In this document: positions 6,395-55,630 of the stretch, one piece after another | Layout: each line of letters starts with the position of its first letter | Position numbering within the stretch: position 1 is the first letter of the stretch | Origin: Escherichia coli | Lineage (GTDB): Bacteria; Pseudomonadota; Gammaproteobacteria; Enterobacterales; Enterobacteriaceae | Reading direction: 5' to 3' (one strand) | Length of the DNA stretch: 64,000 nucleotides | Assembly (NCBI RefSeq): GCF_013315695.1 | Contig: NZ_CP054353.1 | Notes under the pieces: model-generated | The model's input: only the letters and a program-made list of their open reading frames with translations | Databases searched by the model: none | Told to the model about the DNA's origin: nothing | Made by a program: the position numbers and the translations under genes

Positions 6395-6692
6395 ATGTAT
6401 GCCACTGTTTGAAAATCCCTTGCGGGAGTGAAAAAGGCGCAAATTGCGTTTCTAAATATTTCGTATACAGAGGAGCCTATTATAAAAATCATTGCTCACA
6501 AAAATATGTTTCGTTTCACAGTTCTATCATTTACGTAATCGATTGCGTTCACGTTTACACACATTCGGGCGGGGATTGTACTGACTTTCACCCTTGTTGC
6601 AAACTTTTACTATCAATCCAGGTGATGTAAGCGGAGTAACAAAATGACGGGAAAAGATGTTGCGGGACGCACAAAATCGCCCCGCTATACGT

Positions 6693-7099
6693 TTACTGCA
6701 TAACAGGTTGAATGTCGTGGATACGTACAAAGTCTAACTGTTCTACAGAAATCCCCTTTAACTGTAACGGAATATCAACATCGCTGGGGACGAGGACGCT
6801 GGCAGGGGCATTAATCAATTGATTCTGCAAATTGATTTCCTGAAAGTTGTCTATTGTTCCCTGAATTTGCCCATATTCAACAGTTCCGCTGAATGCGGGC
6901 AAGGGGTCATTCGACTCGCCCTGAATACGTAGCGTCAGGGTGGTGCCATCTGTATCATGCGTAATATTCACTAGCGACATACGTAAAGTACCGATCTGGC
7001 TTTCCAGTCTTGCCGGTGTTTTCGCTCCAGGCAGAAGGTAAACCCCACTGCTGGATTTTGCATTCAGCCTGTTTTGCTGAGTGATTTTGACGGTTTCTT
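6693..7099 (-). pseudogene. yajI: yajI lipoprotein gene, 3' (C-terminal) fragment separated from its 5' part by an IS insertion
   Basis: reading frame open from about 7127 to stop at 6693 (about 135 codons); no start or signal peptide; matching N-terminal piece found at 8851..8979. Confidence 0.75.
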
Positions 7100-7118
7100 T
7101 ATCCGGTGCGCCGTAAAA

Positions 7119-7138
7119 CCCCGTCCTTCAGGGCGGGG
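7119..7138 (+). repeat. left-end subterminal hairpin ccccg-tccttcaggg-cgggg
   Basis: 5-bp stem with 10-nt loop; same orientation and same loop as the right-end hairpin. Confidence 0.7.
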
Positions 7139-7159
7139 ATATAAGGCGCGGTTTTCCAC

Positions 7160-7590
7160 CTGACCAGGTGTTTGCTGTTGTTCAATGTATTGGCGGATGA
7201 CGGATATTGGCGCACCTCCGCAGCTACTGGCAAAATAGCCAGGACTCCACAAAACGCCTTTGTAGTAATACCTGACTGCAATATCTGGTCGATCTCGTCG
7301 CAGTCACCTACCCGATACGCCTTTGAGGCTGTTTACCAGACTGGATATCGCCAGTTTGGGAGGATAGTTAATTAACAAATGGACGTGATCTGGTTCGCCA
7401 TCCATTTCAACCAGTTCAGCTTCAAAATCAGCACATACATTTGAATAGTAAGTGCGTAGTTTTTCTGTCGCGTCATGGTCAAAAATCTGGCGTCGGTATT
7501 TGGGACAAAGACCAGGTGAACATGCATCAGGAAAACACAATGCCTTCCACGCCGGATATCGGTTTCTTTTTTCACAGACCAAAGTATCAT
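7160..7590 (-). pseudogene. tnpA: IS200/IS605 Y1 (HUH) transposase tnpA, inactivated by a frameshift and an in-frame TGA
   Basis: frame A gives ...HVHLVFVP, frame B gives CPKYRRQIF...DHVHLLINYPPK...LKGVSGR then TGA at 7304-7306, then WSPGYFASSCGGAPISVIRQYIEQQ in the same frame. Confidence 0.8.
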
Positions 7591-7597
7591 TTGACCT

Positions 7598-8806
7598 GTG
7601 AAACGATTACAGGCATTTAAATTCCAGTTAAGACCAGGTGGTCAACAGGAGTGTGAAATGAGGCGCTTCGCAGGCGCATGTCGTTTCGTTTTCAATCGTG
7701 CTCTGGCGCTTCAGAATGAGAATCATGAGGCCGGTAATAAATACATCCCTTACGGGAAAATGGCTTCCTGGCTGGTTGAGTGGAAAAACGCCACTGAAAT
7801 GCAATGGCTTAAAGATTCGCCCTCACAGCCATTGCAACAGTCACTGAAAGACCTTGAGCGGGCTTACAAAAACTTCTTCCAGAAGCGGGCTGCTTTTCCC
7901 CGATTCAAAAAGCGGGGACAGAATGATGCATTCCGCTACCCGCAGGGCGTTAAGCTCGATCAGGAAAACAGCCGTATTTTTCTGCCGAAACTTGGCTGGA
8001 TGCGCTACCGGAACAGCCGTCAGGTCACGGGTGTTGTGAAAAATGTCACTGTCAGCCAGTCCTGCGGTAAGTGGTACATCAGTATTCAGACAGAAAGTGA
8101 AGTATCCACTCCGGTTCACCCTTCAGCATCAATGGTCGGGCTGGATGCTGGCGTGGCTAAACTCGCCACGCTGTCAGATGGCACAGTCTTTGAGCCTGTA
8201 AACAGTTTTCAGAAAAACCAGAAGACGCTGGCGAGACTTCAGCGACAGTTAAGCCGCAAGGTCGAATTCAGCAATAACTGGCAGAAGCAGAAACGCAAAA
8301 TACAGCGACTGCATTCCCGTATCGCAAATATCCGCAGGGACTACCTTCACAAAGTCACAACGACCGTCAGCAAAAACCACGCAATGATAGTCATTGAGGA
8401 TTTGAAGGTCAGCAACATGTCAAAGTCAGCAGCGGGTACGGTCAGCCAGCCGGGGCGCAATGTCCGGGCAAAATCAGGTTTAAACCGTTCGATACTGGAT
8501 CAGGGCTGGTATGAAATGCGCCGCCAGCTTGAGTACAAGCAGCTCTGGCGTGGCGGTCAGGTGCTTGCTGTTCCGCCAGCGTACACAAGCCAGCGTTGCG
8601 CGTGCTGTGGTCATACAGCGAAAGAAAATCGCCTGTCACAAAGTAAATTCAGATGCCAGGCATGTGGATATACAGCGAACGCTGATGTAAATGGCGCTCG
8701 TAACATTTTAGCGGCGGGGCACGCCGTTCTTGCCTGTGGAGGGATGGTGCAGTCAGGCCGCCCGTTGAAGCAGGAACCCACCGAAATGATTCAGGCGACA
8801 GCCTGA
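7598..8806 (+). CDS. tnpB: IS605-family TnpB (OrfB), RuvC-like RNA-guided endonuclease family
   Basis: 402-aa ORF, GTG start; N-terminus resembles the ISDra2 TnpB N-terminus as I recall it; RuvC motifs [22 protein letters not shown] and CxxC...CxxC zinc finger all present. Confidence 0.92.
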
Positions 8807-8870
8807 ACGTAGCAGGGATCCACGTCCTTCAGGGCGTGGAGGATGTCAATGAGTTGCGTCATCTCCTGGT
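8650..8870 (+). ncRNA. predicted TnpB guide RNA (omega/right-end RNA) spanning the tnpB 3' end, the right-end hairpin and a flank-derived guide; not directly observed
   Basis: inferred from the known architecture of TnpB elements; right-end hairpin at 8820-8839 and intact tnpB upstream. Confidence 0.35.
8820..8839 (+). repeat. right-end subterminal hairpin ccacg-tccttcaggg-cgtgg
   Basis: 5-bp stem with 10-nt loop, 14 bp downstream of the tnpB stop. Confidence 0.7.
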
Positions 8871-8979
8871 TCAGTGTGCTGACGCTGTGTTTCATCTGCC
8901 GCACTTCGCTTTGCTGCACACAGGCGCTAAGGCTGAACAGGCTTCCCAGCAGGAGCAGTCGAAAAACGTTAGTATTCAT
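8851..8979 (-). pseudogene. yajI: yajI lipoprotein gene, 5' (N-terminal) fragment with signal peptide and lipobox
   Basis: ATG at 8979 then MNTNVFRLLLLGSLFSLSAC (lipobox LSAC); frame runs into the IS right end. Confidence 0.75.
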
Positions 8980-9093
8980 AGGTCGTCCCTTTCTCGTCGC
9001 AATTAGCCTAATGGTAGAGGGTAAAAGCAGTGAAAGCATCGATCCTTTATCTCAAAAGCGTTGCGCCTTTGTTGTATCGTCAGTTCAGGGTAA

Positions 9094-9579
<486 letters not shown>

Positions 9580-36974: not shown

Positions 36975-37005
36975 TTAACCATTCCCATACAATTAGTTAA
37001 CCAAA

Positions 37006-37040
37006 AAGGGGGGATTTTATCTCCCCTTTAATTTTTCCTC
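37006..37040 (+). terminator. candidate terminator after clpX
   Basis: gggggga / tctcccc stem followed by T-rich tract. Confidence 0.45.
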
Positions 37041-37049
37041 TATTCTCGG

Positions 37050-37080
37050 CGTTGAATGTGGGGGAAACATCCCCATATAC
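37050..37080 (+). promoter_or_regulatory. sigma-32 heat-shock promoter of lon
   Basis: TTGAAT at 37052-37057, 13-nt spacer, CCCCATAT at 37071-37078; matches the sigma-32 consensus. Confidence 0.65.
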
Positions 37081-37161
37081 TGACGTACATGTTAATAGAT
37101 GGCGTGAAGCACAGTCGTGTCATCTGATTACCTGGCGGAAATTAAACTAAGAGAGAGCTCT

Positions 37162-55516: not shown

Positions 55517-55630
55517 GGGGGCTCTGTTGGTTCTCCCGCAACGCTACTCTGTTTACCAGGTCAGGTCCGGAAGGAAGCAGCCAAGGCAGATGACGCGTGT
55601 GCCGGGATGTAGCTGGCAGGGCCCCCACCC
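55517..55630 (+). ncRNA. ffs: 4.5S RNA (signal recognition particle RNA)
   Basis: 114-nt sequence GGGGGCUCUGUUGGUUCUCCCGCAACGC...GGCAGGGCCCCCACCC recognised as E. coli 4.5S RNA, including the conserved domain IV motif. Confidence 0.95.

Follow-up and report, generated by a model that had tools for sequence, protein, structure and literature searches.

Two direct hairpins in a split yajI gene of Escherichia coli read as the subterminal palindromes of an IS609 copy

The window analysed here is the whole 64,000-nucleotide stretch of the Escherichia coli contig NZ_CP054353.1 (assembly GCF_013315695.1). In its tsx (−), yajI (−), nrdR (+) and ribD (+) neighbourhood, the yajI gene is split by an insert which carries two divergent genes and a hairpin close to each of its ends. 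We assign these hairpins, with a probability of roughly 0.93, to the left and right subterminal imperfect palindromes (IPL and IPR) of the insertion sequence (IS) IS609, a member of the IS200/IS605 family with divergent tnpA and tnpB, located at 7103-8849. Observations made here concern identity, boundaries, target, structure, covariation and guide/cleavage complementarity. The features of the element are as follows.

7103-8849, + (the top, active strand): IS609 copy of 1747 bp, delimited by the empty allele, megablast and a three-way alignment.
7099-7102, +: TTAT, target or left cleavage tetranucleotide (CL); host sequence outside the IS, and predicted transposon-associated motif (TAM) of TnpB.
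7115-7118, +: AAAA, left guide tetranucleotide (GL), directly 5' of the hairpin foot.
7119-7138, +: IPL, left subterminal imperfect palindrome; 8-bp stem CCCCGTCC/GGGCGGGG with a T·G pair, loop TTCA.
7160-7590, −: tnpA pseudogene (Y1/HUH transposase), from alignment to the intact copy of strain A30 (L003) and from fragmented open reading frames.
7598-8806, +: tnpB, or insQ, intact gene of a 402-aa RNA-guided endonuclease, from Pfam and structure matches.
8816-8819, +: GGAT, right guide tetranucleotide (GR).
8820-8839, +: IPR, right subterminal imperfect palindrome; stem CCACGTCC/GGGCGTGG, loop TTCA.
8846-8849, +: TCAA, right cleavage tetranucleotide (CR), with which the element closes; predicted cut 10 nt 3' of the IPR foot.

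Across 7098-8850, the element is 98.2% identical in nucleotide sequence to the full length of K-12 IS609/insQ. Identity above 95% defines the same IS in the usual practice of ISfinder. The intact TnpA of strain A30 bears the RefSeq name "IS609 family transposase". The K-12 element (insQ/ydcM) has the same divergent layout and the same ends, and the element in the window is a copy of it. The two differ in location (ydcL-ydcO in K-12, yajI in the window), in lesions of tnpA which are particular to the window copy, and in the left hairpin, which is intact in the window while the K-12 IPL carries a G-to-A change in its stem.

Genomes were compared by megablast against 5426 complete E. coli genomes, and the identical insertion in yajI is present in at least 340 of them. 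The best match to positions 6650-9100 is isolate AF3, with 99.4% identity; the source strain has no close representative among these genomes. A count of 5425 of 5426 genomes was discarded as a measure of IS609 prevalence, because the query took in the yajI flanks. Elements of the IS605 group have been reported in about 91% of E. coli genomes (PMC9956272). Established knowledge covers IS609 itself, the single-strand mechanism guided by hairpins and the guide RNA of TnpB, and the finding is in this sense already known. Nothing described below is biologically new in kind, and the side results amount to in-silico confirmation of published rules.

The left hairpin, ccccgtccttcagggcgggg at 7119-7138, and the right hairpin, ccacgtccttcagggcgtgg at 8820-8839, both lie on the + strand; their sequences, coordinates and strand are those given in an earlier sequence-only reading, which drew attention to two near-identical hairpins here. 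A search on both strands with the pattern CCNCGTCCTTCAGGGCGNGG, allowing up to 3 mismatches, returned 2 sites in 64 kb, and these are the two hairpins. Shuffled sequences lead to an expectation of 0.07 matches, and none of 100 shuffles gave two. In the repeat search, the same segments appear as a direct repeat of 21 nt (7119-7139 and 8820-8840) with 19/21 identical positions. The copies differ in two nucleotides, C to A at stem position 3 and G to T at position 18, which form one base pair and compensate each other. Asymmetric positions of the hairpin, comprising the TTCA of the loop and, at stem position 6, the T that faces a G, are identical in both copies. Because four asymmetric positions agree between the copies, the hairpins are truly in direct and not inverted orientation, which, together with the direct repeat, bears out what had been proposed.

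Folded as single-stranded DNA (ssDNA), each hairpin has a stem of 8 bp, CCNCGTCC/GGGCGNGG, which includes one T·G pair, and a 4-nt loop TTCA, and this structure replaces the 5-bp stem and 10-nt loop suggested earlier. The fold is better on the + strand than on the − strand, where T·G turns into a C·A mismatch. The foot of IPL lies 16 nt inside the left element end (7103), and the foot of IPR is 10 nt from the right element end (8849). The dinucleotide AT (7139-7140) directly follows IPL. The orthologous copies of AF3 and E26 have an identical IPL sequence, as do 5 of the 7 independent insertions under comparison.

An outer helix can also be drawn in the ssDNA of the left end, between 7108-7112 and 7145-7149 (GCGCC/GGCGC plus GT/AT), enclosing the guide AAAA and IPL. 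Its downstream block TAAGGCGCGGTTTTC is kept in a relative from Klebsiella (L009), in which the upstream arm GCGTCTTA pairs as well. This helix may be the counterpart of the accessory left-end structure discussed for the family member IS608.

To determine the boundaries of the element, the uninterrupted yajI of strain GPEC1165 (locus L001) was used as an empty-site reference. It reads ...CGTTTCTTTAT|TGAGTTGCG..., and around the joint ...GACCGTTTCTTTAT|TGAGTTGCGTC... The left flank stops at 7102 and the right flank restarts at 8850, with zero bases common to either junction. The insert is thus 7103-8849 without target duplication, because the flanks align to this allele without overlapping bases; the empty junction TTTAT|TGAG shows no duplication either. 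Alignments by megablast to copies at other loci begin at 7098 and finish at 8849 or 8850, and the three-way alignment gives the same limits. The empty allele contains neither hairpin, nor the 1747 bp between and around them, which answers the question raised in the sequence-only reading, whether one of the hairpins might be native to an empty yajI allele. The same reading took the hairpins as anchors of the element ends and considered the exact junctions ambiguous. The hairpins do mark the ends, but they are not the ends themselves, which are at 7103 and 8849, and alignment to the empty allele fixes both junctions. Furthermore, no inverted repeat between the left and the right terminus emerged from the repeat search.

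Target and ends were described from seven insertions, each at a different locus: the window, K-12 ydcL/ydcO, a TetR gene in A30, yeaR-yeaQ, yfaY/yfaV, and two plasmids. The sequence YTTAT is found directly 5' of the element at all seven sites. In the window, position −5 (7098) is T, and the empty allele retains TTTAT. The right end is ...TCAA in 7/7, reading AGGATGTCAA in six of them and AGGAGGTCAA in a decayed plasmid copy (L007), while the right flanks of the seven insertions are mutually unrelated. A one-sided fixed target of this kind is typical of the IS200/IS605 family. The hairpins accompany the element at six or more loci besides yajI. Among IS elements which contain TnpB, TTAT is the commonest left-end cleavage site and TCAA the commonest right-end site (PMC9956272). 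The layout of TTTAT, 16 nt, AAAA and hairpin is the same in a Serratia relative and a Methylomonas relative (66% TnpA identity).

Two further relatives were inspected. For the Klebsiella relative, the full-length matches among plasmid copies all lie at one site, and all alignments stop at ...GTCAA; the last ~95 nt of the right end recur in many taxa. In a relative from a Shigella sonnei plasmid (L010), a left hairpin resembling its right one was not found.

The four nucleotides in front of each hairpin were examined against the rule described for IS608. In that element the transposase binds the hairpins, and the four bases 5' of each foot pair with the cleavage sites, GL AAAG with CL TTAC and GR GAAT with CR TCAA (PMC3201880, PMC5934647). 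Documented pairs include A+16:T−3 and A+17:T−4 (PMC5934647). For the AAAA of the window the rule predicts TTNT, and TTAT is seen. At the right end, GGAT is matched to TCAA by G:C (−3), G·T (−4) and T:A (−1). The rule is obeyed at both ends of the window element. Compared with IS608, IS609 has the target TTAT instead of TTAC and the guide AAAA instead of AAAG, so that the pair between the fourth base of the guide and the last base of the target has gone from G:C to A:T by changes on both sides.

Similarity between the two elements extends to other features. CR is TCAA in both, and the right spacing is 10 nt in both, the IS608 figure being counted to the cleavage point (PMC3201880). They have in common direct subterminal palindromes on the top strand, 4-nt guides, the lack of target duplication, and a position of the element in the template of lagging-strand synthesis. 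The AT that follows the left hairpin of IS609 is like A+42/T+43 of IS608. The hairpin irregularity is a T·G pair in IS609 and an extrahelical T in IS608 (PMC3201880), and tnpA and tnpB are divergent in IS609 and co-directional in IS608. The comparisons with IS608, and those with ISDra2 below, were made from published descriptions and not by sequence alignment.

Taken as a member of the IS605 group within IS200/IS605, the element thus has a Y1_Tnp gene, direct palindromes, a one-sided target and guide complementarity, and it is devoid of both terminal inverted repeats and target duplication. The proposal that such hairpins are recognised in single-stranded form by a Y1 transposase of this family is supported by all points which could be tested.

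A wider survey was performed on species-representative genomes with the right-end motif CCNNGNCCTTCAGGNCNNGGAGGATGTCAA, in which six stem positions were left free; it gave at least 120 loci (L014-L133). The listed loci, to which the following counts refer, lie in Halobacteria, Streptomyces, Burkholderiales, Nitrospira, Planctomycetota, Serratia and others. The 30-nt right-end motif, composed of the hairpin with the TTCA loop and AGGATGTCAA, is present in haloarchaea and in many bacterial phyla with loop and tail exact. Free stem positions are almost always paired, with compensatory changes. Among 121 right ends, pair 4-17 is C:G in 110 and G:C in 5; pair 6-15 is C:G in 77, T·G in 14, G:C in 12 and T:A in 4; and pair 3-18 is T·G in 73 and C:G in 41. 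T·G is common and C·A is rare, and therefore only this strand is selected to fold. GAAT precedes the hairpin in 71/121.

Left ends were approached through the 92 listed loci with enough upstream sequence. A direct upstream TTCA hairpin is present in 22 of them and an inverted one in 4. The tetranucleotide that the rule predicts occurs 14-20 nt upstream of the foot in 17 of 21 distinct left ends, with the pairings AAAA/TTAT, AAAG/TTAC, GAxA/TCAT and GAxG/TCAC. Control shuffling of the guides gave 4.4 +/- 1.7 such cases, and none of 2000 shuffles reached 17. This result is statistical and not site-by-site, as the left boundaries in the survey have no empty-site basis.

Strand composition was also considered. 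The window has a GC skew of +0.035 and a 12:1 distribution of Chi sites on the + strand; because of this skew and Chi bias, the + strand has leading-strand composition and is the template for lagging-strand synthesis. The strand with TTAT, foldable hairpins and TCAA is the same + strand. Preference for the lagging-strand template is known for the IS200/IS605 family (PMC5027513), although one insertion cannot prove a bias. Strand-specific excision and insertion of a single strand by TnpA receives indirect support from the agreement of T·G tolerance, the + strand fold and the lagging-strand template.

Following the family model, the + strand would become single-stranded at the replication fork, and a dimeric Y1 (HUH) TnpA would bind each hairpin with one of its sites. 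AAAA, the left guide, would pair with TTAT, in the host flank 16 nt upstream of IPL, and GGAT, the right guide, with TCAA, 10 nt downstream of IPR. The top strand would then be cut, exit as a circle and re-insert 3' of another TTAT without target duplication. The right hairpin, transcribed together with the tnpB 3' end, would in addition make up the last stem-loop of the TnpB/InsQ guide RNA. With the adjacent yajI flank as guide and TTAT as TAM, TnpB would cut the empty yajI joint and so favour re-copying of the element. TnpA binding and cleavage, guide-RNA production and nuclease activity are thus projected from what is known of the family members IS608 and ISDra2.

Several points weigh against this interpretation. 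The mechanism is carried over from IS608 and ISDra2, and a literature search on IS609 found surveys and IS inventories only, without biochemical or genetic work on its TnpA at these ends. Spacing at the left is 16 nt in IS609 and 19 nt in IS608, in which CL lies 5' of IPL at this distance and CR, as in IS609, 10 nt 3' of IPR (PMC3201880, PMC5934647). The second position of GR forms G·T in IS609 and A:T in IS608 (GGAT and GAAT, respectively). In the survey, the hairpin is preceded by AAAA or AAAG in 27/121 listed right ends, which does not fit the rule for TCAA. The assignment of a guide RNA, presented below, leans on Rfam scores under threshold. The tnpA of the window is a pseudogene, and the K-12 copy of IS609 showed zero transpositions in mutation-accumulation lines (PMC5009759). 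In K-12, tnpA is broken and the left hairpin of the element mutated (the change in IPL described above), in keeping with this lack of transposition.

The state of the two genes bears on the present use of the hairpins. In comparison with A30, tnpA of the window has a 1-nt deletion after 7503, an internal TGA at 7304-7306, and a stop codon changed from TAG to CAG at 7160-7162. The intact sister TnpA matches Pfam Y1_Tnp (E 3e-42) and has the HVH motif and a C-terminal tyrosine in the context RQYIEQQ. Because tnpA of the window is dead (frameshift, internal stop, lost stop), its hairpins are usable only by a TnpA from elsewhere. Broken tnpA was also observed in 5 of the 6 other tnpA-bearing copies inspected (L002, L004, L005, L012 and L013), leaving A30 alone intact. 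On the other hand, tnpB is full-length in 8/8 copies compared, with pairwise ratios of non-synonymous to synonymous rates (dN/dS) of 0.17-0.57, and it seems to be maintained without its transposase. TnpB matches Pfam OrfB_IS605 (5e-34), Cas12f1-like_TNB (1e-24) and HTH_OrfB_IS605 (4e-13), and the ISDra2 TnpB structures 8bf8, 8exa and 8h1j with E 1e-53. It has a RuvC-like fold and the zinc-ribbon TNB domain; the motifs GLDAG, IEDL and NADVNGA and two CxxC motifs were read from the alignment to a related designed nuclease (not ISDra2).

These data give some weight to the explanation that the hairpins are inert relics, in which an old, vertically inherited and immobile insertion has had too little time to decay and no transposase uses them. 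We regard it as possible, though clearly on the less probable side. The three inactivating lesions in tnpA are in its favour, as is the age of the insertion: orthologous yajI::IS609 copies are 12-15 tnpB substitutions apart, with a synonymous divergence (dS) of 0.015-0.034, and because of this divergence the insertion, found in at least 340 genomes, is old. Decaying hairpins in K-12, L004, L005, L006 and L007 and the record of K-12 IS609 without transposition (PMC5009759) point in the same direction. However, this explanation concerns present activity and not identity, and it is compatible with the assignment to IS609. Intact tnpA copies in E. coli, such as that of A30, could act in trans. The right hairpin may be kept through the guide RNA of TnpB, whose gene is under purifying selection. 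Neither hairpin has changed in the window or in its two orthologues, but with fewer than one change expected over 40 nt at this divergence the comparison is powerless.

Among the copies with altered hairpins, two on plasmids deviate in their organization. One, at about 2005-2300 of L007 (plasmid pCR0563_2, E. coli strain 361), is a derivative of ~300 bp made mostly of IS609's left and right ends. Its hairpins are 245 nt apart and have mismatches in both stems, it is flanked by TTTTAT, and it terminates in ...GGTCAA. Its appearance is that of a miniature non-autonomous form, similar to palindrome-associated transposable elements (PATE-like). The other, at 401-1740 of L006 (plasmid p1_000200, strain WCHEC96200), is without tnpA, and its left hairpin nearly abuts tnpB in an IS1341-like layout. 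In the right hairpin of this copy, two C-to-T changes keep T·G pairing, and the loop is now TTGA.

We have also addressed the possible role of the right hairpin in RNA. Two features are predicted at this end.

8739-8849, +: predicted omega RNA (reRNA) scaffold, formed by the 3' end of tnpB together with the right end; its 5' limit, which is uncertain, may reach about 8679.
8850-8865, +: predicted 16-nt guide segment TGAGTTGCGTCATCTC, which is yajI sequence; placed by the ISDra2 model.

At gathering thresholds, Rfam gave no family in the element, and the segment does not qualify for membership in HgcC or sot0042. Below these thresholds, HgcC (RF00062) matches 8739-8862 with 23.8 bits (gathering 50) and sot0042 (RF02656) matches 8679-8840 with 17.5 bits (gathering 88). 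Both families were built from archaeal RNAs, and the window scores below the thresholds of both. Their consensus sequences end in nearly the same hairpin, and the likeness is limited to the terminal hairpin and tail, the HgcC consensus tail AGGAGGUCA being near to the IS609 tail AGGAUGUCAA. Transcripts overlapping tnpB have been described with an RE-like (right-end-like) tetraloop, an "8-bp stem with UUCA loop", linked to HgcC (Gomes-Filho et al. 2015, PMC4615843), and one such transcript (sotRNA) was reported in E. coli K-12 (PMC4615843). In sotRNA/HgcC, the G+C-rich 8-bp stem with the UUCA loop closes the tnpB-overlapping transcripts at their 3' end, and the consensus CCccCGcccUUcAGGGCGggG is nearly that of the window. 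RAGATH-18 matches 8733-8776 (+), inside the tnpB 3' end and upstream of the right hairpin, with 28.1 bits (gathering 44.9), and may be part of the same guide-RNA scaffold.

In ISDra2, TnpB is guided by an RNA of this class, to which the flank contributes the last ~16 nt, and the TAM is the target of the transposase (Karvelis et al. 2021, PMC8612924). The IS609 layout is alike, in that the right end follows directly after tnpB, the flank would supply the guide, and the TAM is expected to equal the target; the predicted TAM is TTAT in IS609 and TTGAT in ISDra2. By analogy, the guide TGAGTTGCGTCATCTC with TTAT would specify the empty yajI allele, or donor joint (TTTAT|TGAGTTGCGTC). A further and improbable scenario is that the insertion persists as a TnpB-only unit, with its RNA aimed at uninterrupted yajI (TTAT + TGAGTTGCGTCATCTC). 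If this were true, the nuclease would cut incoming intact yajI and shield the insertion from loss by recombination, providing a small allele-specific barrier independent of transposition.

An RNA function could even be the main one for both hairpins, the right one serving as the guide RNA's terminal stem and the left one, on the − strand, as a terminator-like stem after tnpA. The right hairpin does align with the terminal stem of HgcC and sot0042 and corresponds to the published "RE-like tetraloop" (PMC4615843), and on the − strand the left hairpin comes after the tnpA stop and is followed by TTTTAC. However, this leaves unexplained both the hairpin of the same orientation at the left end, outside the guide RNA, and the covariation of the 4 nt before the left hairpin with the insertion target. 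Moreover, the − strand has the C·A mismatch and a weaker fold, and neither hairpin was called in the terminator scan, the right one being without a T tract. A terminator role was accordingly rejected for the right hairpin, uncalled in that scan, and is weak for the left one. We consider a mainly RNA-based function very unlikely, and the right hairpin is best given an RNA role in addition to that as IPR and not as an alternative to it.

The remaining explanation, that the hairpins are host sequence (native yajI or a palindrome like the repetitive extragenic palindromes, REP) or chance occurrences outside any mobile element, could appeal to their position within long − strand open frames, but it is refuted by the empty site, where intact yajI is without both hairpins and the 1747-bp insert, by the travel of the hairpins with the element to at least six other loci, and by the expectation of 0.07 chance matches, and its probability is negligible. 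In a test for host palindromes of the REP type, the hairpins had no copy in the empty yajI and no further copy in the window.

Two fragments of the host gene remain.

6693-7102, −: yajI 3' fragment, the C-terminal part of the lipoprotein (DUF3251), severed from its start by the insertion.
8850-8979, −: yajI 5' fragment with signal peptide and lipobox (MNTNVFRLLLLGSLFSLSAC...), now reading into the IS; from its translation compared with intact YajI.

Translation of the 3' fragment matches the intact YajI of GPEC1165 from ...NKETVKITQQ onward. The N-terminal fragment continues through the right hairpin to a stop at 8791-8793. The sequence-only reading had both hairpins open in the yajI frame, which holds for the right one but not for the left one, where this frame meets a TGA inside the loop; the open frame across the left hairpin is the mutated frame of tnpA with its stop codon lost. 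The two short open frames which cross the hairpins are artefacts of the insertion. In orthologous genomes, the Prokaryotic Genome Annotation Pipeline (PGAP) lists yajI as two pseudogene fragments and tnpA as a pseudogene ("frameshifted; internal stop"); the "RNA-guided endonuclease InsQ/TnpB" is entered as intact. What is gained for annotation are the exact insertion limits, 7103-8849, and the inactivation of yajI.

The start codons of tnpA (7590) and tnpB (7598) are 7 nt apart. Next to these divergent starts, an inverted repeat of 14 nt (7570-7583 and 7590-7603) was observed, with arms 86% complementary and separated by 6 nt, the right arm covering both starts. It may represent a regulatory site or an RNA structure.

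In the window as a whole, neither tRNA genes nor tandem repeats were detected. Small RNAs at gathering threshold are sraA at 36995-37090 (−) and the 4.5S signal recognition particle RNA (ffs) at 55525-55621 (+), a content which presumably corresponds to the tsx-to-ffs region of the E. coli chromosome on the K-12 map.

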